From positions 30,623 to 94,622 of the forward strand of contig CALCCE010000251.1 of NCBI GenBank assembly GCA_937899835.1: 64,000 bases of DNA, in the 5' to 3' direction. Every line of letters starts with the position of its first letter. Position 1 is the first letter of the stretch. The DNA is from an uncultured Flavobacteriales bacterium (GTDB lineage: Bacteria; Bacteroidota; Bacteroidia; Flavobacteriales_G; Salibacteraceae). The notes beneath the pieces were generated by a model. The model was not told where the DNA came from, searched no databases, and was given only the letters and a program-made list of their open reading frames with translations. Of this stretch, positions 7,171 through 24,235 are shown in pieces. A program made the position numbers and the translations under genes.

Positions 7171-7358
7171 ACGGATGGAATAACTCGGAGCTGTGGAACA
7201 CATCCCATGCATTGAAGAGAAAGTAGCTTGATTTCCAACCCAAGCAATTGCCACCGACATCTATAAAATGGTGCAATCAACTCGCCAACTACATTGAGCC
7301 ATTTCTTGCTTTTGGAGAGTTGTACACCAGGAACCACAACCCCAATACAACCGATCTT

Positions 7359-8147
7359 ATGTTCCGCCTTGCTATCCTTTTTTTCTGCTTCCATCTCCTG
7401 AGTAGCTTATCGGCCTTCGCACAGACTCAATTGAGCACGGCCCCACCACAGCCCCAACCTTTCTACACCGGCAGCGCTTTGCCAACCCTTACCGAGGCTA
7501 ATGAAGATTCCATTTCCATCCCCAGCAATGGGCTTTTAAAGTTTACACTGCTCAAACCGCTACAACTCACCAATGCAGGTTTGGAGTTCGGCTACGAAAG
7601 GTGGTTTTCCCAAAAATATAGTGCCCAGGCCTCGTTGCTTTACTTGTTTCCGAACGGTACGCTCAACTTAAATTTACGGGATCCAGGGCCCAACATTAGA
7701 GGCTGGGGGTATTCCATAGAGACCAGGGCTTACCTCTACGAACCTACCAGTATCCTCTATCAAGCTTTCGGTAAACGTCTGAATTGGGTTTACCTTGGCC
7801 TGTCTTACGATCACGTGCGCCAAACCTTTGATGACGTCTACAATTTTGGAGAATATGACCCGAGCATTGACTCTGCCCTTGCCGCGGAAAACAATTATGA
7901 CGATAGCATTCAGGTAAGAAAGCGCACCCATACCGTTACTTTAAAACTGGGTTTTATTTTTCGGCACAAGCGCCTCTTTTTTGATGCCTATTACGGTTTT
8001 GGAATACGCGTGAAAAGAGCTGCTCACTATGGCCGCCTTCGTCCCGAAGATGAAATTGCTCCCGGAAATTCAACTTTCACAGATAGAAGCGGGATCAACA
8101 GTTATCCTCACTTTGCGCTCAACATCCGATTAGGGTATGCCTTTTGA
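7359..8147 (+). CDS. hypothetical secreted protein, possible small outer-membrane beta-barrel
   Basis: ATG 7359 gives a signal peptide (MFRLAILFFCFHLLSSLSAFAQ). The sequence has alternating aromatic/hydrophobic segments and a C-terminal ...NIRLGYAF ending in Phe, as in many outer-membrane barrels. I recognised no named family. Confidence 0.5.
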   Translation: MFRLAILFFCFHLLSSLSAFAQTQLSTAPPQPQPFYTGSALPTLTEANEDSISIPSNGLLKFTLLKPLQLTNAGLEFGYERWFSQKYSAQASLLYLFPNGTLNLNLRDPGPNIRGWGYSIETRAYLYEPTSILYQAFGKRLNWVYLGLSYDHVRQTFDDVYNFGEYDPSIDSALAAENNYDDSIQVRKRTHTVTLKLGFIFRHKRLFFDAYYGFGIRVKRAAHYGRLRPEDEIAPGNSTFTDRSGINSYPHFALNIRLGYAF

Positions 8148-9547: not shown

Positions 9548-11497
9548 CTACTGAACAATAATTTTCTGTAAATGGTCGGGCTGGTTTTTGAAGGAAACCT
9601 TGAACAAATAAACAGCGGGAGCGAGCACTGGTGTTTCAATGATATTTCCACGTAAGTTAACCGGTATTTCTCTCCCTGAGAGATCCAACATTTGAATACG
9701 CTGAGCCGCTTCTTCGAATTGAATTCGATAAGTATTTCCATACTGATGCAGCACCTTGGTTTCTACGATCTGAGCTTGCTCTATTTGATCCGATGCAGAT
9801 GCTTTTCGCTCAGAATGCTCCTCCTGACCGGGACGGGGATTAAACCCGCACCCGGAATAAGTAGCTGTAATATCATTGACCTCTAAAACAAAGTAGGGAT
9901 CAGTGATCAAATCAGTAAAGGTTGATTCCACTACTCCAGGGGAGCCAGCAACATATTCCTCCAGCAAACACGAGACGGATTCTATATTTGCCGAGATGCT
10001 GTTGTGGCAAAGTTGTACGTATTCATCGCCATAACTGGAAAATATACTTACCCTCGAGGCGCTTGCCGGTTTATTATAGCCATCGGCCATGAAATATTCT
10101 TGCCGCCCGTTGTAATAATAGGCCCCGGAAACACCTTTAATTTGCCCTTCAGAATGGCCTGCGAAAGAGTTAAAGCCATGAGACCACAGTTGGTCAACGG
10201 TTAGCGGGCTTGCTCCTATGTTGTTGGGGTCTATTTTTAGAATTCCTATGGAGGTATTGTTGGGAATAACGCTTGTTCCCGATTGTCTTTCCAGTTGAAA
10301 CATCAACTTGAAAAAGCCTTCCTGATCCATGGCCTTGTAGCACATCATGTTCACATTAAAATTGTTGGTGCTGACGGTATATAAATTGGCTGCATTTCCA
10401 AATCCACTAAAGTGAATGAAATAGGAAAGCAAGCTGCTGCTGGTTCTTGGAAAAAACAGGTTATGAGTGAAGGTTACAATCCCCTCCTTTTCTCCCCAGG
10501 CATCATACACCAGGCTCATCGGACCATCGTCCTTATAAAAGTCGGGGTATAGTTGTAGTTTGCCGGAATATATCGCCTGGCCTTTCTTGAGGGCAATGTC
10601 GTTGCTGCCCACATCATAGGTGAATTCGCAAATCGCTACACCATGAACAATTGAGTTGTTATTGTTGCATTGCAACCTGACATTGGGCTCTGGGTATTTA
10701 TAAATTCCTGCCGTAAAAACGCTGGTGCCCGTAAATATGCTGTTGACCGCTTTGGGGAGATAGCGGATGTCAAAAGTTTCAGTGCGAAGTACGGTCATGT
10801 TTCCTTGGTGGTCTACCTCAAATGCCACCGCAATGGGACTGTCCAAACCTTCCTCTGATTGCATTATTTGCCCCACCGCGAGATAGCGTTGGTCCTGTTC
10901 ATCCAAGGGCTGCAGACCAACCCCTTTGGATTCATTTGTTTGAATTTTGTCCTGGCTGTTGTAGAACCCGGTAAACTGTTTGATTTTAATTTCTGTGTCT
11001 CCCGTAGTTAGGTTGTAGGTGCCGATGAGCATGATGCTCTTCCAATTACCATTCCCTCCATACATAGTGCCTGTGAATACTAACAAATCATGTTGGTTAT
11101 ACTGCAAGCTTGTGATGGTGATAATATTTTCATATATACCACCCCCGTAATTGTAAGGGCTAATGAAATCAATCTTTTTCGACAGCACTTCATTTCCATT
11201 GGGGTCGAAACCCAACAGCCATGTACCCTTATCTACAGGGTCTACCAAGTTTATGGGTTCATCCGTTGAAGAATAAGCCATGTATACCGTGCCTTGTGGG
11301 TGAACAGCATTTGAATTGTATTGGTTAACTGCCACAGCATCTGGGTTGAGTTTTAATCCTCCACGATCAGGGCCGAAAAAGGAACTTTTCTCGATCAAAG
11401 AGAAATGGCTGGTGGTTGCAATTTTGCTCCAGGGTTGTGCAAAAGCACTCGTACCAAGGCTTCCCCACAGCATGAGTAGAAAAAGGGCTCTTTTCAT
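9548..11497 (-). CDS. hypothetical secreted protein with probable T9SS C-terminal sorting domain
   Basis: It has a signal peptide (MKRALFLLMLWGSLGTSAFAQ). The last ~80 aa (...YRIQFEEAAQRIQMLDLSGREIPVNL...APAVYLFKVSFKNQPDHLQKIIVQ) resemble a T9SS type A sorting domain. I did not recognise the body. G+C is markedly lower than in the flanking genes. Confidence 0.7.
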   Translation of the reverse strand: MKRALFLLMLWGSLGTSAFAQPWSKIATTSHFSLIEKSSFFGPDRGGLKLNPDAVAVNQYNSNAVHPQGTVYMAYSSTDEPINLVDPVDKGTWLLGFDPNGNEVLSKKIDFISPYNYGGGIYENIITITSLQYNQHDLLVFTGTMYGGNGNWKSIMLIGTYNLTTGDTEIKIKQFTGFYNSQDKIQTNESKGVGLQPLDEQDQRYLAVGQIMQSEEGLDSPIAVAFEVDHQGNMTVLRTETFDIRYLPKAVNSIFTGTSVFTAGIYKYPEPNVRLQCNNNNSIVHGVAICEFTYDVGSNDIALKKGQAIYSGKLQLYPDFYKDDGPMSLVYDAWGEKEGIVTFTHNLFFPRTSSSLLSYFIHFSGFGNAANLYTVSTNNFNVNMMCYKAMDQEGFFKLMFQLERQSGTSVIPNNTSIGILKIDPNNIGASPLTVDQLWSHGFNSFAGHSEGQIKGVSGAYYYNGRQEYFMADGYNKPASASRVSIFSSYGDEYVQLCHNSISANIESVSCLLEEYVAGSPGVVESTFTDLITDPYFVLEVNDITATYSGCGFNPRPGQEEHSERKASASDQIEQAQIVETKVLHQYGNTYRIQFEEAAQRIQMLDLSGREIPVNLRGNIIETPVLAPAVYLFKVSFKNQPDHLQKIIVQ

Positions 11498-14284: not shown

Positions 14285-17200
14285 ATGAAAAAATGGTTAC
14301 GCCCAAACTTTTTGGCCATTCTATGTTTTGGTTTATTCTGTTTTATTGCCAAATCCCAAGATCAATCCGGAAATCTGTATGCGTCTGAATCGACTTCCGC
14401 CAGCACCATTCCCAAAGGTGCAGTGGAAATCGTAGAAATGCGTGATGGCCACAGCCGTACCTATCAAAACCCCGATGGCTCTTTTACCCGTCGACAGTCC
14501 TATGGTATCCTGAATTTCAAGGATGAAAAAGGCCAGTGGACCCCCGTTGATGAAACCATAGTCATTCGCCCTGAAGCAAATCAGGTGGAGCTGGCCAACG
14601 TGCCTTTTCCCATTTCGGTAGACCTCGCCAATGGCCGTACCAACATGGTAATGGCGGAAGGCGCTGCCTTGGCGTTTGGCGATCAAGCGGAGTTGCGTTT
14701 TGAAGCCTCCGATGGTTCGTTGGTGAGCCAAAGGGCATTCGTACCTACGGGCAACAGCTCAGTTTCGGGTGAAGCGCTCACTTTTCAGGATGTTCTACCC
14801 GGCATCGATCGGGTTCAAAAACTGCATTACTATTTGGTCGAAACCGACTATGTGCTGAAACAGGCCCCTTCCGTTCCGGCCGGGGCAGAGTATTTGGTCA
14901 TGCGAGAGCGCATCGATCTGCCTTCAGGATGGAGCATTGCTACCGCTGCCAACACGGAAACGCCAGAAGAACTCTTTTTGAAAAATGCCGCTGGAGAAGT
15001 GAAGGGCACTTTTTGGACACCGGTAGTATTTGATGCCTCTGAAACCAAAGAAGGCGCCACTGTTGCCCAATACCGGTTATCAAAAGATGGGCAACATACC
15101 TACCTGGACGTGCTTCTGTCGGTGGATTGGCTACAACAGCCCAATCGCCAATACCCGGTTACCATTGAGCCCACCCTAACCAATACCTACAATTTTACTA
15201 TTGGCACCAAGCTTGGTTCAAGTGTACCTTGCTCGGCCACTCTGCCCATTGTTTTTAGTGCAGCTTCTAACATTTCGAATACCAACTGGAATTACAGTTT
15301 CCGGGCACTTGGTTCTGCTTATCGCAGCGAACAACGCTCAAGATTGGTAGGGCCGAATTCTACTTCTACCTGGGTTTCCGGTTGCTGCTCCAGTAACGGA
15401 ACACAATCGTATAATTACAACTCTGGTACTGTATCTCCCGCCAGCACACCTGCAGGAACGCTGAACTACGTGCTGCAAGCTTACCGGACCTGGGGCAGTG
15501 GCAGTTCGTGCGCCACTAACTTCAACTACATTGTAGCCAACACCTGGGATGTTACGGTTACCTACACCGCTTCTACGCCCCCATCGAGCCCAACCGGAAT
15601 AACCGCATCTGCATTTACGGTATGTCCAGGCAGCAGCGTTACCTTCACCGCTTCGGGCGTTTCGGGCACAGCCCACTGGTTTGCCGGTAGTTGTGGCTCA
15701 GCCAACCCCATTGCCACCGGTACTACCGTTACCCTCAACCCCACGAGCAACACCACTTATTATGTGCGCAACTTCAATGGCCTCTACAGTGCCAGTTGTG
15801 CCTCGGTCATTATCACCATGACCTCCTCTCCATCCGTCAGCATCATTTCGAGCAACTCGCCTACGTGTAATGGATTGAGCAACGGTTCGGTGGCAGCCAA
15901 TACTACCAGTGGTTTATTACCTTACACCTACAACTGGTCAAACGGCTCATCGGGCAATGTCATCACCGGGGTAGGTGCTGGTACTTATTCGGTCACGGTC
16001 ACCGATGGCAACGGTTGTACTGATTCTGCCTCTACTACTTTGGTGAATCCTGCTGCTATCTCCGGCACCTTCAATTCCACCATGCCTTCCTGTCCGGGAG
16101 GGAGTGATGGAAGTGCTTCCATTACCGGCTCAGGCGGATTCGGCTCCGGGTACTCCTACATTTGGTCGGGTGGCTTCTCGGGAGCTAACCGTACAGGTCT
16201 TTCTGCCGGAACTTACACCGTAACCATTACCGACGGACTCGGATGTTTGGGCACCGCCAGCGTTACCATCGCCGACCCTCCGGCTTTACCTACTCCGAAT
16301 GTCACCGCCAGTCCGAGTTCGGTTTGTGCGGGAGCAGGAACCAGTGTGACCCTCTCCAATTCGACCAACGTGTCGAACGCAACTTTTAGTCAAACCACTC
16401 CTATACAGTGTACCTTCACTACTGGTGGGGTGCTGAATTACGCCTTTACCGGAGTTCCTTCCGGAGCAACCGGAAATGCTACCCTAACGGTATTTTATCG
16501 GGGTGACTTGAATTTGTCGAGTGAGTTCATTGCCTACGTAGGTGAGAACTCCTACACGCTTGGCAACTCCTTCGCAGTATCCGCTTGTCAGTCCACTTAC
16601 TCTTCCCGTACCTTCACCGTGCCCATGTCAGTGATCAATACCTGGGCCTCGGATGGAATTGTAAACGTTATTGCAGATGCTTCTTCTGCCGTAGGTGGTT
16701 GTTCTTTCGGAGCTTATTGTTCTTACATGTCGCTGACCTTCCCTTATGGAGGCACCACCACCGGAACCACTTATTGGTATGCGGGCAATTGCCCTCAAAG
16801 TATCTCGGGTAACATTGGCACTGGCGACAGCTTGTCAGTAGTTCCTACCACTACTACCACCTATTACGCTTCGGTTTTTGACGGTTCTTGCTGGAGTGTT
16901 TGCGACAGTGTAACGGTTCCGGTTAATCCTCTACCGGCAGTAGTTTCAGTAGCTTCTAACTTCACCATTTGTGAAGGTGCTTCAACCACCATTTCGGCCT
17001 TAGGAGCCAATACATATGTGTGGTCTCCTGCCACAGGTCTCAATACCACGGTTGGTGCTACGGTACAAGCCAGCCCTACCACCACCACTACCTATACAGT
17101 GGTTGGCACCGATGCTAACGGATGTTCCGCCAGTTCCAACACTACGATTACAGTAAATCCAGCCCCTACACTGGCTCCAATTTCTACTTCACCGACTTGT

Positions 17201-20200
17201 AACGGAGGAAACAATGGAGTAGCTGGCGTTACCGCAAGTGGAGCAACTGCTCCATATTCTTATAACTGGATCGGCGGTATTTCCACTTCTTCTGTAGTTG
17301 TTGCTGCCGGTACTTACACAGTCACCGTATCGGACAACCAAGGTTGTTCCAGCACTTTACCGGTAACGGTTACCAACCCTGCAGCCGTAACCGCTACTTT
17401 CTCATCGGTCAATGCTTCCTGCTTCACCGCCAGCGATGGAATAGCTACCGCTTTCGGTTCGGGTGGAAGTGGTTTTGGATATTCCTACGTTTGGCCAAGT
17501 GGCACTACCAATGCCTTGGAAAGCGGCCTCGCTGCGGGTACCCATACCGTAACCATCACCGATGGAATCGGTTGTACAGGAACCGCTACGGTCACCATTT
17601 CATCTCCTCCGCCAGTCACTCCACCATCGGTCAGTACCAGCACGAGTTCAGTGTGCCAGGGCAACACCAATCCCGTCACCCTTTCAATCACAGGGGGTGG
17701 AAGCGGTTCTTTCAATCAAACGCTATCGGCCGCCTGTTCCTTCACCACTGGTGGTACCGTCAACTTGCAATACACGGGTCTTCCTCCCAACCCTACCGGC
17801 AACGGCACACTTACCGTATTTTACCGAGGCGACCTTTCCAGTACCACTGAAACCATCGGTTATTCTTTAGACGGCACTTTTATTGGTAGTTCGTTGGGCA
17901 CTGGAGGAAGCGATTGCCAGGCATTGTATACCTCGCGCACCTTCACGATTTCGAACAGCCAGTTGACTTCTATGGTGGCGGACGGTACTATCAACATACT
18001 CGCCGATGCGACCTCTGGGGTCAACAACTTTTGTTACAGCAACAATACTTCTTTCTGTACCTATACAACCCTGACCTACAATTATGTAAACAGTACCTCA
18101 GCCTACTGGTTTGCCGGTTCATGTTCACAAAATGTATCTTCTGCGATTGGTACCGGTAGTTCGGTTAATGTTACACCGACCACCACCACCACCTACTATG
18201 CCGCCAATCTGGACAACGGTTGTTGGAGCGTGTGCGACAGTGTTACCGTAACGGTTAACCCGCTGCCCACAGTTTCAGCTTCGGTTACTACTTCTACCAT
18301 TTGCCAAGGTACTTCCACTACCCTTACTGCCACCGGAGCTTCTTCCTATAGTTGGAGCCCAACTAACGGTTTGAGTTCCAACATTGGTGCTACCGTTACA
18401 GCTTCGCCATCCACTACAACTACGTATACCGTAACCGGAACGGATGCCAATGGATGTTCCAACACTGCTACTGTACAGGTAATTGTAAGTCCAGCACCTA
18501 ACATTGTCAATATTTTACCGACCCAGCCTTCTTGTGCTACCGGAAGTGACGGCTCCGCTGTGGTTACTGCTTTTGGGACAGGCACCCTTACTTATGCCTG
18601 GTCCAACGGTGCTACCACCGCCTCCAATACCGGCCTTGCAGCTGGCGTTTACACCGTAACCGTTACTGATGCGGTAGGATGTACTTCCACACAAACGACT
18701 ATTGTGAATGCTCCAGCGGGAGTTTCGGCCAACTTCTCTTCCGTAAATGCAACTTGTGCTACCACCAGCGATGGCCTTGCCTCAGTGTTTGGTACCAGCG
18801 GTGCCGGTGGTCCTTTTACCTACCTGTGGCCTTCGGGCAACACCAACCAAACGGAGAGCGGCCTTAGTGCAGGGACCCATACGGTCACCATAACCGACGG
18901 TAATGGCTGTACAGGTACTGCTGCTGTCACCATTAGTGCTCCGGCCCCTCTGGCCACTCCTTCCATTACGGCCACCAACACCACCCTTTGTCAAGGCTCT
19001 ACTACTTCCACTACCCTATCGGCAGTGGGCGGTGTAGGAACCGGAACGTATACGCAAACCAAGTCCATTTCTTGTTCGAGCATCACCGGCGGTACCCTCA
19101 ACTTTACCTTTACCGGAACGCCCACAGGAGCGGTGAATAATGCCACCTTAACCGTCTTTTACCGAGGCGATCTGGCCAGCTCAGGGGAAGTCATTTCTTA
19201 TTCCTTAGACGGTACTTTTGTAGGATCTTCTCTTCCTACAGGTTCGCCTGATTGCCAAACTACGTACAGCTCCCGGGTTTTCACTCTTAGCGCCAGCCAA
19301 ATCAACAGCATGGCTTCTAACGGTTCGATCTCCATGTTGGCAGATGCGGCTACTTCGGTCAACAATTTCTGCTACGGATCCAACACCTCGTTTTGTACTT
19401 ACGCAACGCTTACCTACAATTACAGCAACAATACCGGCTTGTATTGGTTTGCCAACAGTTGTGCCATGAGCACCACTGCGGCAATTGGGTCCAACGCTCC
19501 GATCACGGTAAGTCCTACGACTACTACTACTTACTATGCGGCACTTTACGATGGCAGCTGTTGGGGATTCTGCGACAGCATTACCATCAATGTGGGTACT
19601 CCGCCAGTAGTTTCGGCTACGGCTTCCCCAAGTTTCGTTTGCAACGGGGCAAGTGCCACCCTCACCGCAAGCGGTGCCAGCACTTATGCATGGTCTCCTT
19701 CTTTTGGTTTGAGTTCTACCTCTGGTAGCACCGTGACTGCCTCCCCTACGGTATCCTTCACTTATACTGTTGTAGGAACCGATGCCAACGGCTGTACAAG
19801 CTCCACCACGGTTCCGGTAACGGTGCTTTCCGGTCCTTCGGTGAGCATTAATCCCTCATCGGTTTCTTGTGCTGGTGGGAATGATGGTTCGGCCACCTCC
19901 AATGTTAGCGGAGGCCTCACTCCTTACAGCTATAACTGGAGTAATGGCAGCAGCAACAGCAGTGTTAGCGGCTTGAGCGCTGGCTCGATTAGCGTTACCG
20001 TAACCGATGGCAATGGATGTACCAACACTGCTTCTGCAACGATCTTTCAACCATCGGCACTTAGTTTATCGGTCTCTACTTCTGCTGCTTCCTGCTTCAC
20101 TTCAACCGACGGTTCAGGTTCAGCATTTGGCTCCGGGGGTACCTTCCCGTATACCTACAGCTGGTCCAACGGCAGTACCGGCCAAACGGTCAACAACTTG

Positions 20201-23200
20201 CCATCAGGTTCAGTAACCGTTACCGTCACCGATGGCAATGGTTGTACCACAAGCTCTACTGGATTTGTGGGTGCTCCTCCGGCCATTGGCGCTCCGGGCG
20301 GAATCACCTCGAGTAACGGTAACTCCTTCTGCTCCAACGGTTCCACCGCTACTTTGCTGACGGTACCAGGGGGTTCAGGCGTACAAACTTTTACCTTCAC
20401 TACTGGTACAGCCTGTTCCTTTACCACCGGTGGAAATCTGAACTTCAATATTCCCAACACTCCGACCAATGCAAGTGGATCAGGGGTACTTCGGGTATAT
20501 TACGACGGTGACATTGGTCAGGCTTCTGAAGTCATCACTTACTCCGCAGACGGCACTACGCTGGGCACTTCCAACCTCTCCCCAAGTGGTGACTGTCCTA
20601 CGGTATTCTATTTCAAAGATTTTACGGTGAGTGCTACTCAACTCAACAGTTGGGCCTCTAACGGCTCGATCAATGTGTTTGGAGATGGAGCAACCAGCAT
20701 CAACAACATTTGTATAGGTGGCCGTTCCTGGTGTGGTTATGTAGAACTCACCTATCCCTACATCGGTGGTGCTACCACTTATTGGTTTGCCAATTCTTGC
20801 TCGTACAATGTATCGGCCAGCGTGGGCTCAGGAGATTCGCTCAACGTGGCTCCTACCACTACTACCACCTACTATGCGGCTACTTTTGATGGTACTTGCT
20901 GGAGCTTGTGCGACAGTTTGACCATCAATGTAAACCCTACGCCAACCATTGGGGTAACCTCCACCGCGGCCATTTGTCCGGGTGTTTCGGCAACATTGAC
21001 CGCCACCGGAGCCTCTACCTACGTTTGGAGTCCTGTGACAGGATTGAACACCGGTACTGGTAGTACAGTAACCGCTGCTCCAACTACGACAACGACTTAT
21101 ACCGTCACTGGTACGGACGCCAACGGCTGTACTGCTTCGGCCTCCACCACGGTAACGGTAAACCCTGGCGTAACCGTAAGTGCCAGTTCGCCCACGTTCG
21201 GCTCAGGAAACAACATTTCCTGCTTCGGTGCCAACGATGGTAGTGTTAACCTTTCGATTACCTCGGGCGCTTCGCCTTACACTTTTGCCTGGACCGGACC
21301 TGGTTCTTTTAGCTCTACATCACAAAACATTACCGGATTAGCAACAGGCAGTTATCAAGTGACGGTGACTGATGCCAACGGATGTATCGATAACACTTCC
21401 ATCACACTCACTGGCCCTTCGGGAGCACTCACGGCTTCGGCCAGCTCCAGCTTGCAGGCAGGTGGTTTCAACCTCAGCTGTAATGGTGGCAGCGATGGTT
21501 CCATTACCTTGGCCGTGAGCGGAGGGTCTCCAACTTATACTTACAACTGGTCTGGCCCTTCCAGCTTCAGTGCCACGGTACCCAACCCAGGAAACCTTTC
21601 GGCGGGTGCCTATTCGGTCACCGTAACTGATTTGGCGGGTTGTTCTACTACCACCTCCATTTCACTTACTGAACCTACCACAGTTAGTGCTACGGTTACT
21701 CCGGTGGTTCAAAGCAATGGTTTCAACCTCAGTTGCGCCAACAGCAGCGATGGCGATATTACCGCCAATGCAAGTGGTGGTTTAAGTCCTTACACGTACG
21801 GTTGGTCTGGCCCGGGTGCTTATACCGGTAGTGGTGCTAACATCACCGGTTTAGTAGTAGGTACTTATAGCCTCACCGTAACCGATGCCAACGGATGTAC
21901 TTATACCGATTCGCAAGTGCTTACCGCGCCTACGGGTGTAACCACCAGCATCACTTCTCCTACCTTCACCGGTGGTTTCAACATCAGTTGTGCAGGAAAT
22001 ACCGATGGTAGTGCCACGGTTTCGGCTTCTGGTGGAGCTGGAAACTATACCTTCAACTGGTCTGGCCCAGGTGGGTTTACGGCCACTGGTGCCAGCATCA
22101 ACAACCTTGCTGCCGGTTTGTACATCTTGACCACCACCGATGGTGCGGGATGTCAGTTTACAGATTCTATCACGCTGACTGAACCGGTTGTATTGCAAGC
22201 CGGGCTTTCTTCAGTGGATGTAACATGTGTGGGTGGCAACGATGGTAGCATTGCCGCTACCCCAACTGGAGGAAATGGGCCATTTACTTTTAACTGGTCG
22301 CACGACGGTACTTTGACCGGCAGCACCGCCGGTAATCTAACGGAAGGTACCTACCTCATCACTGTGACCGATGCCAATGGTTGTGTGGCCAATGACAGTA
22401 TCACGATTGGCTTCATCAACAACTTGCCGGTGGTAAACCTGGGTAACGATACCAACATTTGTGACGGTGCTACCCTCACACTGAACCCTGGAAGCTTTGT
22501 ATCCTATTCCTGGTCGGGCGGCACATCGAACCCCACGTTAGACGTTACTACCACCGGTTTCTACTCGGTAACAGTAACGGACAACAACACCTGTTCCAAC
22601 ACCGATACTATTGCTGTATTTGTGAATTCAAATCCTGTGGTGAACCTCGGCAACGATACTTCAGTATGCGGAAGTCTCACCCTGGATGCAGGATCAGGAT
22701 ATAGCTCCTATTTGTGGAACGACAACTCAACGGCCTCCACACTAAATGCAGCCAGCGGTGGAACTTACACCGTAACCGTATCCGATGGAAACGGCTGTAC
22801 GGGAAGTAGCTCCATCAATGTAACCATCTCCCCTGCTGCGGCAGTCAACGTGACCACAGTAGATGCCTCTTGTGGCAACACCGACGGAGAAGCTACGGCT
22901 GCACCTGCCGCCGGAAACGGCCCTTACACCTACAACTGGAGCAATGGAGGTACTTCAGCTTCCATCTCCGGACTTGCCGCTGGAACTTACCTGATCACCC
23001 TTACTACGGCCGATGGTTGTACTACGGTGGGCACCGGATCGGTGAACAACAGTGGTGCTCCAAGCTTGAGTATAATTGGATCGGATGTGAGCTGTGCCGG
23101 AGCGGCTGATGGCAGTGCCAGCGTTACGCCAACCGGTGGCGCAACACCTTATGCTTTCCAATGGAACAGTGGACAAACCTCAGGAGCCATCAGCAACTTA

Positions 23201-24235
23201 TCTGGCGGCACCTACATTGTGAATGTGACCGATGCCAACGGATGTGTGGCTTCTGCCTCGTTTGTGGTCAACGAACCCACTCCACTAGTGGCTTCCGGGT
23301 CATCTACGCTGGCCTCCTGTGGCCAGAGCAACGGTAGCGCTACAGTGGTGGTCAGTGGTGGTATTGCGCCACTTACCTACTTGTGGGACGATCCTACTGC
23401 ACAAAATATGAACCCTGCAGTGAACCTCAATGCTGGCCTGTATACCGTTACCGTTACGGATGCTGGTGGTTGTTCAATTGTTACTTCCATAGGGGTCAAC
23501 AATGCCAATGCGGCTACCTTGTCGGTATTGGGCAACAACACCACTTGTGCGGATGATACCGATGGTTCTGCGGTTGTTTCGGTAGCGGGTGGCCTGTCGC
23601 CTTTCACCTATCTGTGGGACGATGCAGCGGGACAAACGACTCCTACTGCCTCCAACCTTGGTGTAGGTACCTACAACGTGGTGGTTACCGATAGCTCAGG
23701 CTGTGTGAGTACCGCTTCAGTAAACATTACGGCCAGCAACCCTGCGCCTATCGTGGATCTCGGTGGACCTTTCGCAGTAATTTGTGAGAACAGTACCTAT
23801 GACATTGATGCTGGAAGTGCTTTCCAAACCTATCTTTGGTCGGACGGTTCTACCAATCAGATATTGTCGGTAAGTACACCTGGAACTTACACGGTAACGG
23901 TAACGGATTTCAATGGCTGTGAGGGAATCGGAGAGCTCACCCTGGTGACCGATCCATGTGTGAGTGTTGCTACGTTGAGTGATCCTTTCTCACTCAATTA
24001 TTTTCCGAATCCAACCTCAGGAGAATTGAACATTGCCATTAAAGGCTGGACGGGCAAAGACCTGCACCTTCAGGTATTCAACCTTCAGGGACAGGTAGTT
24101 TACGCCATGCGCCAGGATCAAATGCCGGCTAACTTCCAGTACCAAATCGATCTCTCTTCTGAAGCGCAGGGCATTTACTTGCTTCGGGTAAGCAACGGTG
24201 AAACGATAGAAACCCGAAAGGTTTCGATAAAATAA
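14285..24235 (+). CDS. giant (3316 aa) T9SS-secreted cell-surface repeat protein (SprB-repeat / Ig-like adhesin)
   Basis: It is a single uninterrupted 9951-nt ORF with a signal peptide (MKKWLRPNFLAILCFGLFCFIAKSQ). It contains about 17 SprB-type repeats (C.G..DGS...GG..PYTY.WS....GL.AG.Y.VTVTD.NGC), Ig-like repeats and a T9SS type A C-terminal domain. Intrinsic terminators flank it on both sides. Confidence 0.9.
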   Translation: MKKWLRPNFLAILCFGLFCFIAKSQDQSGNLYASESTSASTIPKGAVEIVEMRDGHSRTYQNPDGSFTRRQSYGILNFKDEKGQWTPVDETIVIRPEANQVELANVPFPISVDLANGRTNMVMAEGAALAFGDQAELRFEASDGSLVSQRAFVPTGNSSVSGEALTFQDVLPGIDRVQKLHYYLVETDYVLKQAPSVPAGAEYLVMRERIDLPSGWSIATAANTETPEELFLKNAAGEVKGTFWTPVVFDASETKEGATVAQYRLSKDGQHTYLDVLLSVDWLQQPNRQYPVTIEPTLTNTYNFTIGTKLGSSVPCSATLPIVFSAASNISNTNWNYSFRALGSAYRSEQRSRLVGPNSTSTWVSGCCSSNGTQSYNYNSGTVSPASTPAGTLNYVLQAYRTWGSGSSCATNFNYIVANTWDVTVTYTASTPPSSPTGITASAFTVCPGSSVTFTASGVSGTAHWFAGSCGSANPIATGTTVTLNPTSNTTYYVRNFNGLYSASCASVIITMTSSPSVSIISSNSPTCNGLSNGSVAANTTSGLLPYTYNWSNGSSGNVITGVGAGTYSVTVTDGNGCTDSASTTLVNPAAISGTFNSTMPSCPGGSDGSASITGSGGFGSGYSYIWSGGFSGANRTGLSAGTYTVTITDGLGCLGTASVTIADPPALPTPNVTASPSSVCAGAGTSVTLSNSTNVSNATFSQTTPIQCTFTTGGVLNYAFTGVPSGATGNATLTVFYRGDLNLSSEFIAYVGENSYTLGNSFAVSACQSTYSSRTFTVPMSVINTWASDGIVNVIADASSAVGGCSFGAYCSYMSLTFPYGGTTTGTTYWYAGNCPQSISGNIGTGDSLSVVPTTTTTYYASVFDGSCWSVCDSVTVPVNPLPAVVSVASNFTICEGASTTISALGANTYVWSPATGLNTTVGATVQASPTTTTTYTVVGTDANGCSASSNTTITVNPAPTLAPISTSPTCNGGNNGVAGVTASGATAPYSYNWIGGISTSSVVVAAGTYTVTVSDNQGCSSTLPVTVTNPAAVTATFSSVNASCFTASDGIATAFGSGGSGFGYSYVWPSGTTNALESGLAAGTHTVTITDGIGCTGTATVTISSPPPVTPPSVSTSTSSVCQGNTNPVTLSITGGGSGSFNQTLSAACSFTTGGTVNLQYTGLPPNPTGNGTLTVFYRGDLSSTTETIGYSLDGTFIGSSLGTGGSDCQALYTSRTFTISNSQLTSMVADGTINILADATSGVNNFCYSNNTSFCTYTTLTYNYVNSTSAYWFAGSCSQNVSSAIGTGSSVNVTPTTTTTYYAANLDNGCWSVCDSVTVTVNPLPTVSASVTTSTICQGTSTTLTATGASSYSWSPTNGLSSNIGATVTASPSTTTTYTVTGTDANGCSNTATVQVIVSPAPNIVNILPTQPSCATGSDGSAVVTAFGTGTLTYAWSNGATTASNTGLAAGVYTVTVTDAVGCTSTQTTIVNAPAGVSANFSSVNATCATTSDGLASVFGTSGAGGPFTYLWPSGNTNQTESGLSAGTHTVTITDGNGCTGTAAVTISAPAPLATPSITATNTTLCQGSTTSTTLSAVGGVGTGTYTQTKSISCSSITGGTLNFTFTGTPTGAVNNATLTVFYRGDLASSGEVISYSLDGTFVGSSLPTGSPDCQTTYSSRVFTLSASQINSMASNGSISMLADAATSVNNFCYGSNTSFCTYATLTYNYSNNTGLYWFANSCAMSTTAAIGSNAPITVSPTTTTTYYAALYDGSCWGFCDSITINVGTPPVVSATASPSFVCNGASATLTASGASTYAWSPSFGLSSTSGSTVTASPTVSFTYTVVGTDANGCTSSTTVPVTVLSGPSVSINPSSVSCAGGNDGSATSNVSGGLTPYSYNWSNGSSNSSVSGLSAGSISVTVTDGNGCTNTASATIFQPSALSLSVSTSAASCFTSTDGSGSAFGSGGTFPYTYSWSNGSTGQTVNNLPSGSVTVTVTDGNGCTTSSTGFVGAPPAIGAPGGITSSNGNSFCSNGSTATLLTVPGGSGVQTFTFTTGTACSFTTGGNLNFNIPNTPTNASGSGVLRVYYDGDIGQASEVITYSADGTTLGTSNLSPSGDCPTVFYFKDFTVSATQLNSWASNGSINVFGDGATSINNICIGGRSWCGYVELTYPYIGGATTYWFANSCSYNVSASVGSGDSLNVAPTTTTTYYAATFDGTCWSLCDSLTINVNPTPTIGVTSTAAICPGVSATLTATGASTYVWSPVTGLNTGTGSTVTAAPTTTTTYTVTGTDANGCTASASTTVTVNPGVTVSASSPTFGSGNNISCFGANDGSVNLSITSGASPYTFAWTGPGSFSSTSQNITGLATGSYQVTVTDANGCIDNTSITLTGPSGALTASASSSLQAGGFNLSCNGGSDGSITLAVSGGSPTYTYNWSGPSSFSATVPNPGNLSAGAYSVTVTDLAGCSTTTSISLTEPTTVSATVTPVVQSNGFNLSCANSSDGDITANASGGLSPYTYGWSGPGAYTGSGANITGLVVGTYSLTVTDANGCTYTDSQVLTAPTGVTTSITSPTFTGGFNISCAGNTDGSATVSASGGAGNYTFNWSGPGGFTATGASINNLAAGLYILTTTDGAGCQFTDSITLTEPVVLQAGLSSVDVTCVGGNDGSIAATPTGGNGPFTFNWSHDGTLTGSTAGNLTEGTYLITVTDANGCVANDSITIGFINNLPVVNLGNDTNICDGATLTLNPGSFVSYSWSGGTSNPTLDVTTTGFYSVTVTDNNTCSNTDTIAVFVNSNPVVNLGNDTSVCGSLTLDAGSGYSSYLWNDNSTASTLNAASGGTYTVTVSDGNGCTGSSSINVTISPAAAVNVTTVDASCGNTDGEATAAPAAGNGPYTYNWSNGGTSASISGLAAGTYLITLTTADGCTTVGTGSVNNSGAPSLSIIGSDVSCAGAADGSASVTPTGGATPYAFQWNSGQTSGAISNLSGGTYIVNVTDANGCVASASFVVNEPTPLVASGSSTLASCGQSNGSATVVVSGGIAPLTYLWDDPTAQNMNPAVNLNAGLYTVTVTDAGGCSIVTSIGVNNANAATLSVLGNNTTCADDTDGSAVVSVAGGLSPFTYLWDDAAGQTTPTASNLGVGTYNVVVTDSSGCVSTASVNITASNPAPIVDLGGPFAVICENSTYDIDAGSAFQTYLWSDGSTNQILSVSTPGTYTVTVTDFNGCEGIGELTLVTDPCVSVATLSDPFSLNYFPNPTSGELNIAIKGWTGKDLHLQVFNLQGQVVYAMRQDQMPANFQYQIDLSSEAQGIYLLRVSNGETIETRKVSIK
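15830..21165 (+). repeat. four in-frame copies of a ~1.33 kb (~445 aa) multi-domain super-repeat
   Basis: Approximate copy boundaries are 15830, 17156, 18488, 19826 and 21165. The conserved Y-[RD]-G-D codons recur at 16499, 17825, 19163 and 20504, giving spacings of 1326, 1338 and 1341 nt. A partial unit with an uninterrupted Ig-like domain precedes the array at ~15575-15829. Confidence 0.75.
21166..23960 (+). repeat. tandem SprB-type repeats (5 + 4) interspersed with three LG[NG]D..C Ig-like repeats
   Basis: Units of ~65-70 aa recur, such as GFNLSCNGGSDGSITLAVSGGSPTYTYNWSGP...AGAYSVTVTDLAGC. Three units resemble NLGNDTNICDGATLTLNPG...YSWSGG...GFYSVTVTDNNTC. Confidence 0.65.
23990..24232 (+). 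other. T9SS type A C-terminal sorting domain of the giant protein
   Basis: SLNYFPNPTSGELNIAIKGWTGKDLHLQVFNLQGQVVY...AQGIYLLRVSNGETIETRKVSIK matches the usual Por_Secre_tail / TIGR04183 pattern. Confidence 0.8.

Follow-up and report, generated by a model that had tools for sequence, protein, structure and literature searches.

In RrgA, the tip adhesin of the pneumococcal pilus, and in related tip pilins, a von Willebrand factor A (vWA) domain is inserted in an immunoglobulin (Ig)-like domain of the CnaB type. Here we describe an analogous arrangement in a giant protein of 3316 amino acids (aa) encoded by an uncultured Flavobacteriales bacterium (Salibacteraceae). The stretch analysed, referred to throughout as the window, comprises 64,000 nucleotides (nt) of contig CALCCE010000251.1 (assembly GCA_937899835.1, positions 30,623 to 94,622 of the forward strand), and all coordinates below are window positions. 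The protein contains four super-repeat units, in each of which an Ig-like domain is split by an insert of ~136 aa. We are highly confident of the structural description offered here, namely that the insert is an autonomous jelly roll nested in a host domain of the Ig_7 family. As in adhesins of the RrgA type, a module would occupy a loop of an Ig-like stalk and extend sideways as a head, leaving the stalk continuous. The two cases differ in the guest (a jelly roll here, vWA in RrgA), in the host (Ig_7 or HYR against CnaB) and in the export route, which here would be secretion through the type IX system (T9SS) and is that of sortase pili in RrgA. Unlike the RrgA guest, the insert is found at three host sites and also free-standing.

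The nearest structural relatives are carbohydrate-binding modules (CBMs). CBM35, CBM6, CBM4, CBM36, the module 8zqf and the domains of BcsB resemble the insert in size (~130 aa) and, in Foldseek comparisons, in jelly-roll class. CBMs are also like it in being extracellular and modular, often terminal or multicopy, with conserved acidic loop residues, and many CBM6, CBM35 and CBM36 modules bind Ca2+. The insert departs from them in having no detectable profile relationship to them in searches of Pfam, NCBIfam and PDB with hidden Markov models (HMMs), and in its own signature (G-D-x5-E, [EN]-G-x2-[LI]-G, [DQ]-C, D-G and V-[ND]-x-[FI]-C). It further carries one or two putative disulfides, and its hosts are adhesin-like giants instead of glycoside hydrolases. 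As far as sequence comparison can tell, it cannot be shown to belong to a named family of CBMs or galactose-binding domains (GBDs).

Two other groups deserve comparison. The P-domain of kexin and furin is likewise a galactose-binding-like jelly roll with R-G-D-L at a strand end, and in both the RGD would be structural and not adhesive; its profile likeness to the insert is limited to 11 residues, the Arg is not conserved in the insert and no subtilisin lies adjacent. GBD_T9SS_assoc (PF23759), GEVED and MAM occur in the same kinds of protein as the insert domain, and one homologue (P0013) carries it together with all three. They share its broad fold class, their models match other regions and none covers the insert. 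The insert represents an unnamed family in a well-known fold class, within a well-known type of protein.

Nesting of the insert in Ig_7 domains

An alignment of the four units gives the order of each super-repeat as split Ig-like domain with insert, Ig/PKD-like domain, SprB and SprB, with a period of 1326-1341 nt. At the protein level the inserts are 36-45% identical to copy 1, and those of units 2 and 3 are 59% identical to each other; at the DNA level the copies share 47-60% identity. We read the four units as old duplications, and not as a recent repeat. Tandem Repeats Finder reported nothing in the giant open reading frame (ORF), an uninformative result for a period of ~1330 nt, which exceeds its 500-nt limit, and for copies ~50% identical in DNA. 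The original prediction, made from the letters of the window, had proposed four inserts of ~130 aa within super-repeats, and this description holds. Its four sites are retained, and the sequence blocks it quoted are all found in the alignment. The boundaries were set from the secondary structure of an AlphaFold2 (AF2) model, which moves each start 12-19 nt (~4-6 residues) further upstream (Table 1). The uninterrupted Ig-like domain that it had placed at ~15575-15829 is recognised by Pfam as Ig_7 and served as an internal reference for the split domains.

The central claim of the original prediction, that the insert is nested in a split Ig-like domain, is borne out by excision tests, by an orthologous domain lacking the insert and by a structural model. 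With the insert left in, Pfam Ig_7 (PF19081, Ig-like domain CHU_C associated; gathering score 27.3 bits) has no match over the units. Once the insert was spliced out, unit 2 matched profile positions 4-84 of 84 with a score of 35.1 bits, unit 3 matched over the full length at a score below the gathering score (21.6 bits), and units 1 and 4 had no Pfam Ig_7 match. A local Ig_7 HMM of length 85, grown by jackhmmer from the window's intact Ig_7 domain, matched all four excised units across the junction, over positions 2-82 (5-82 in unit 4) with E values of 1e-20 to 1e-24. Host membership of Ig_7 is therefore indicated strictly, by the Pfam score, in unit 2, and by the local profile in all four units. 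The junction falls at ~29-32 of the local profile, which is the B-C loop.

The homologue P0003 (2920 aa) is ~50% identical to the window protein and collinear with it, window residues 432-1138 corresponding to its residues 175-877 and window residues 1274-3316 to its residues 882-2920. The unit-2 insert (17693-18100) is precisely missing from P0003 (residues 877-882), where an intact Ig_7 domain of the same subtype is read instead ('ICQGSGSSVNLISTGGTGTTYWFANTC'). Comparison of the two proteins indicates that the guest domain is naturally present or absent as a whole at an orthologous site.

An AF2 model of unit 2, built from a 36-sequence alignment, is confident (predicted local distance difference test, pLDDT, 93.1; predicted TM-score, pTM, 0.79). 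The insert is flanked by Ig strands (model residues 8-29 and 166-218), between which a separate all-beta domain is seen, and the flanks have pLDDT values of 84-96 per ten-residue block. From this model we infer strand pairing between the two Ig flanks. By the profile junction, the guest sits in the Ig_7 loop between strands B and C.

Table 1. Features of the giant gene, in window coordinates
Feature	Position	Strand	Evidence
Unit 1 host Ig_7, aa 670-882, split	16292..16930	+	Excised: local Ig_7 HMM 2-82/85, E 1.1e-22, junction ~32
Unit 1 guest jelly roll (predicted), aa 694-829	16364..16771	+	Alignments, hmmsearch, translation check
Unit 2 host Ig_7, aa 1113-1326, split	17621..18262	+	Excised: Pfam 35.1 bits; local HMM E 3.4e-24
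Unit 2 guest jelly roll (predicted), aa 1137-1272, modelled copy	17693..18100	+	AF2, Foldseek, absent from P0003
Unit 3 host Ig_7, aa 1558-1772, split	18956..19600	+	Excised: Pfam 21.6 bits, sub-threshold; local HMM E 4.4e-22
Unit 3 guest jelly roll (predicted), aa 1582-1719	19028..19441	+	Alignment, hmmsearch, translation check
Unit 4 host Ig_7, aa 2005-2218, split	20297..20938	+	Excised: local Ig_7 HMM 5-82/85, E 1.5e-20
Unit 4 guest jelly roll (predicted), aa 2029-2165, DGD replaces RGD	20369..20779	+	Alignment, hmmsearch, translation check
Core motif Y-R-G-D-L-x4-E, unit 1, beta4-beta5 hairpin loop	16496..16525	+	Motif search; secondary structure of insert model
Core motif YRGDLSSTTE, unit 2	17822..17851	+	Motif search, family conservation
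Core motif YRGDLASSGE, unit 3	19160..19189	+	Motif search, family conservation
Core motif YDGDIGQASE, unit 4	20501..20530	+	Motif search, family conservation
Uninterrupted Ig_7, aa 433-511, internal reference for the split domains	15581..15817	+	Pfam, profile 1-81/84, 38.9 bits
Giant ORF, 3316 aa	14285..24235	+	ORF list and translation
T9SS type A C-terminal sorting domain, aa 3240-3316	24002..24232	+	PF18962, TIGR04183

Fold, family and hosts of the guest domain

The insert of unit 2 modelled by itself (AF2, 39-sequence alignment; pLDDT 93.5, pTM 0.86) is made up of about nine strands plus a single short helix. Foldseek searches against the PDB matched the carbohydrate-binding domains of BcsB (E 1e-5, TMq 0.53-0.61), the alginate-binding CBM 8zqf, CBM35 (2vzp, 2w1w, 2w47), CBM6 (8j3x, 5fui, 5la2) and CBM4; for these CBM-type matches the Foldseek probability is mostly 0.97-1.0, TMq 0.37-0.61 and identity 8-17%. 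The matches extend to domain III of Cry toxins, to PorU and Ena3A and to the jelly rolls of viral capsids. According to the model, the insert is a beta jelly roll of the galactose-binding-domain-like or CBM-like fold class. A search against viral structures returned generic jelly rolls only (capsids and tail fibres) and was uninformative. The model of the whole of unit 2 weakly matches a fragment of GhpA, the grappling-hook protein of Aureispira (9g8b_A; E 1e-3, 18% identity, root-mean-square deviation 25), which is probably a generic likeness between Ig arrays.

The fold class is known; the sequence family is missing from the curated libraries tested. The window inserts had no match in Pfam-A (2025 copy) or NCBIfam (June 2026) at E<=1. 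Searching 39 diverse members against both libraries gave scattered single matches (E 4e-4 to 0.1), with no family found in more than two members. In ten full-length homologues searched against Pfam the insert region was uncovered, apart from one Glyco_hydro_2_N match of 25.5 bits, under its 28-bit cut-off. The sub-threshold Pfam hints in single members point to a glycoside hydrolase family 2 sugar-binding domain, to CBM_35_2 and to a galactose-binding-like viral turret domain, and sequence-profile searches of the PDB gave noise only (E >0.1). The original prediction had been unable to place the insert in any named family, and this is borne out for these libraries; in searches of the literature on adhesins of the Ig-like, HYR or T9SS kind with a domain nested or inserted in another we found no description of it.

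An exhaustive HMM search with a profile of the four inserts against 1.84 billion representatives recovered 357 proteins at E<=1e-3, of which 88 reach E<=1e-10 and 8 reach E<=1e-30. Word-indexed homology searches are a poor substitute in this case: the four inserts gave 0 matches and the 39-member profile only three short proteins, the index being poor at finding this family, which is of low complexity and rich in Thr, Ser and Gly. Judged by the profile search, the insert belongs to a real and widespread family of extracellular domains, for which neither Pfam nor NCBIfam has a model. Source names of its members are 'hypothetical', 'HYR domain-containing' or 'LRR domain-containing', and never name the domain itself.

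Among the best 150 of the 357 representatives, the domain lies within the first 60 residues in 70, is present in at least two copies in 68, and is accompanied by a C-terminus like the T9SS C-terminal domain (CTD) in 43. It is found at the extreme N-terminus, directly after the leader, in T9SS cargo with beta-helix, PKD, MAM or GEVED modules, and in tandem arrays (P0004, P0006, P0009, P0010, P0014). Other members combine it with Peptidase_C39-like domains (P0019, P0025) or leucine-rich repeats (LRRs; P0004). From these architectures we regard the domain as autonomous, occurring free-standing as well as nested. Five members (P0006, P0014 and P0151-P0153) have tandem or single copies with long Pro/Ser/Thr-rich linkers and look eukaryote-like or non-Bacteroidota.

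Nested copies number 39 in 13 proteins, counted over the same 150 representatives together with the window protein. HYR domains host 28 of them, at ~31-41 of the profile; nine, including the four in the window, lie early in Ig_7 at ~28-32, and two lie late in Ig_7 at ~67-68. The HYR-nested copies belong to HYR-repeat giants (P0002, P0005, P0011, P0020, P0080, P0087, P0094), with up to 8 per protein. Excision has the same effect there as in the window, the HYR match of P0005 extending from profile positions 26-81 to 6-81 of 81. A further Ig_7 example is L001, a signal-peptide protein of a Bacteroidetes metagenome-assembled genome (MAG; JAQCBQ010000007.1, ~9700-10400), where the guest lies in the first Ig_7 domain after 'TTYYVEAQ', around profile position 69 and so in another loop than in the window, and keeps YRGDL; removing it takes the Ig_7 match from positions 1-69 at 58.1 bits to 1-84 of 84 at 72.7 bits. 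On the profile alignments the guest is therefore nested at three distinct host sites: the Ig_7 B-C loop, the Ig_7 F-G loop and HYR.

That a giant adhesin from the Bacteroidota should hold an unannotated beta-sandwich is in itself unsurprising; the size of the family, its nesting at three sites and its presence or absence between orthologues are what set it apart. We consider it possible, though rather doubtful, that it is an undescribed portable guest family ('GD-x5-E, two-Cys', with at least 357 clusters at 50% identity) that has inserted independently into at least three loops of two unrelated hosts, with precise gain and loss, and that constitutes a new CBM family of distinct specificity. 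If the CBM assignment were true, a new family would be added and a possible hint at the targets of these adhesins obtained. Recurrent nesting offers a clean natural case of domain-insertion tolerance, with possible use as a protein-engineering scaffold, and bears on how stalk-like adhesins gain lateral binding heads. On a practical level, the family merits a Pfam entry: giant repeat proteins of Bacteroidota are largely unannotated, and naming the domain would annotate hundreds of clusters among T9SS cargo, HYR-rich giants, LRR proteins and Peptidase_C39-like proteins.

Conserved core, possible role and rival explanations

Conservation was counted over 277 domain copies from 146 representative proteins. 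The most constant positions are G49 (87%), D50 (96%), E56 (93%), G68 (90%), C78 (92%), G101 (86%) and V113 (82%), and E63, D77, D100 and N/D114 are frequent. The original prediction had named Y-x-G-D-[LI] as the constrained element. Its x-G-D-[LI] part is upheld; the Tyr is not, as its position is occupied by Ala in 37% of copies, by Val in 18% and by Tyr in only 15%. Taking alignment and model together, the constrained element is G-D-[LFYI]-x4-E, predicted to form the beta4-beta5 hairpin. A structural or Ca2+-binding role of this putative core is plausible.

The insert has four conserved Cys in the alignment of the window copies and in hmmsearch, one fewer than the original prediction had counted. 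Of 136 copies from outside the window that are nearly full length, 132 have Cys at both profile positions 77 and 116 and 4 at neither, and no copy has one without the other; for positions 17 and 121 the figures are 31 copies with both, 94 with neither, 11 with C17 alone and 0 with C121 alone. Because the Cys co-occur in pairs, the counts argue for two putative disulfides, a family-wide pair (insert ~78/~117) and a subfamily pair (~18/~124). All four window copies have the subfamily pair; neither the first of the P0003 inserts nor the MAG copy L001 has it.

The giant protein matches Pfam models for SprB (274.8 bits, 17 repeats), Ig_7 (48.7 bits) and a K319L-like PKD domain. At its C-terminus it matches Por_Secre_tail (PF18962; 60.6 bits, aa 3240-3315) in Pfam and TIGR04183, the T9SS type A sorting domain, in NCBIfam (54.1 bits). 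The CTD is of type A, the type B CTD model being absent among the NCBIfam matches of the protein. Its N-terminus, MKKWLRPNFLAILCFGLFCFIAKSQ, is hydrophobic and, judged by eye from the translation, signal-peptide-like. With both marks of a T9SS type A cargo, the sorting-domain matches and the signal-peptide-like N-terminus, the protein is read as a T9SS-exported giant repeat protein of a Bacteroidota bacterium. It resembles a repeat-built surface fibre, and on its domain content we do not file it as an SprB orthologue.

We propose, as the probable though far from certain best explanation of the whole, that the insert is a CBM-like jelly-roll guest in Ig_7, forming a lateral ligand-binding head on a surface stalk. 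The giant protein would be a cell-surface stalk of SprB and Ig-like repeats, a reading suggested by its Sec leader, its T9SS type A sorting domain and the repeats themselves. In each unit the chain would leave the Ig fold, build the jelly roll and return, an arrangement that requires the two ends of the guest to lie close together. The Gly-Asp pair and the Glu six residues on, in the beta4-beta5 hairpin, would be part of what stabilises the guest, and the second Cys pair would link its first and last strands near the chain's points of entry to and exit from the host domain. The four jelly rolls would then protrude sideways as ligand-binding heads with the continuity of the stalk unbroken. The ligand would most probably be a glycan, with Ca2+ perhaps stabilising; the ion may be held by the G-D...E hairpin together with further conserved acidic residues of the loops. 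Carbohydrate is favoured as the ligand because of the nearest structural neighbours and because of the way the domain is placed N-terminally in secreted proteins of many modules. Binding of a glycan or ligand by the insert domain is nevertheless the more tentative part of the proposal, and we place it slightly short of an even chance.

Several points weigh against the proposal. The likeness to CBM structures is moderate (TM 0.4-0.6, identity 8-17%), and in Foldseek the scores of viral capsids, of domain III of Cry toxins and of Ena3A are about level with those of CBMs; because generic jelly rolls do about as well, the fold class alone cannot establish carbohydrate binding. The conserved residues (Gly, Asp, Glu, Cys) are structural in type, unlike a conserved aromatic binding platform. 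The Cys co-occurrence figures are raw counts, uncorrected for shared ancestry, and attachment to the surface is a reading of domain content.

The main rival holds that the jelly roll binds no ligand and either stiffens the stalk, possibly with Ca2+, or serves as a module for lateral packing between proteins or for polymerising the surface fibres. The structural type of the conserved residues fits this reading, as do structural neighbours that are self-assembling jelly rolls (the crown of BcsB, the Ena3A appendages of endospores and viral capsids) and the proteins with arrays of the insert domain alone (P0004, P0006, P0009, P0010). The frequent extreme N-terminal position in T9SS cargo with beta-helix, PKD or MAM modules, however, resembles the deployment of binding modules; the closest small-domain Foldseek matches are true CBMs; and the loops vary strongly between copies, as expected for diversifying specificity. 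We consider a ligand-free jelly roll unlikely, although it is the alternative that best survives, and prefer the CBM-like head.

A second possibility is that the insert has diverged from the P-domain of proprotein convertases. In furin and PC1 the jelly-roll P-domain has a conserved RRGDL, the local motif (TLxxxRGDL) is alike, and Kex2 (1r64) is found at rank 49 among the Foldseek matches of the whole-unit model, with E 6e-3. It is not in the top 50 matches of the insert-only model, and furin and kexin are absent from the PDB sequence-profile search even at E<=10. An hhalign comparison of the 39-member profile with an approximate sequence of the furin P-domain aligned only 11 columns, at a probability of 0.3%. 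Pfam P_proprotein matched neither the window copies nor the 39 members, and Pfam finds no subtilisin or peptidase S8 domain in the giant protein. On the hhalign result, the lack of a P_proprotein match and the lack of an adjacent subtilisin, homology to the P-domain was rejected and is, in our estimate, very improbable.

Slightly less probable again is that the insert presents, in its RGD, a genuine motif for adhesion of the integrin type or to host cells. The codons lie exactly where the original prediction put them (RGD at 16499-16507, 17825-17833 and 19163-19171, DGD at 20504-20512), and the triplet is present in 3 of 4 window copies, in 2 of 3 P0003 copies and in the MAG copy L001. Unit 4, however, has DGD, the third P0003 copy NGD and P0018, another close homologue, QGD. 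Over the 277 copies Gly-Asp is preceded by Arg in 29%, by Asp in 21%, by Glu in 10% and by Asn in 8%, against the near-constant Gly and Asp that follow. The insert model puts the triplet at the end of a beta-strand entering the conserved hairpin, and not at the tip of a free loop, and the family comes mostly from environmental metagenome proteins. Since RGD is conserved neither in paralogues nor in orthologues, the adhesion reading therefore fails, as the original prediction had suspected. The Arg is best read from the alignments as incidental, a chance variant of the conserved Gly-Asp...Glu core, and a tempting but wrong 'RGD adhesion' annotation is removed.

That the nesting itself is an artefact (a linker, a new domain and a truncated Ig, with the 'SVC.G..VTLS' piece outside the downstream Ig-like domain) has in its favour the lack of a Pfam Ig_7 match across units 1 and 4 even after excision, and has hardly any probability left against the above-threshold, whole-profile match of excised unit 2, the end-to-end local HMM matches of all four units, the uninterrupted Ig_7 of P0003, the confident flanks of the unit-2 model and the restoration of Ig_7 and HYR by excision in unrelated proteins.

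Surroundings of the giant gene

The neighbouring genes are of a housekeeping kind (thioredoxin-reductase-like, peptidase M49, Smr, HemF, a LysM protein and GuaA), and the neighbourhood of the giant ORF offers no operon and no functional clue. Two upstream ORFs of 299 aa (7248-8147, + strand) and 649 aa (9548-11497, - strand) have no Pfam match at E<=1e-4. Within the giant protein, the region of aa ~27-430 (14363-15574) has no Pfam or NCBIfam match and includes the Cys-rich stretch 'VSGCCSSNGT'; the N-terminus differs between the giant protein and its homologue P0003. Another protein in the set, P0001, is a fragment of the same giant protein from another assembly. An ORF of 168 aa in another frame within the giant gene (17344-17850, + strand) is probably a by-product of biased composition.

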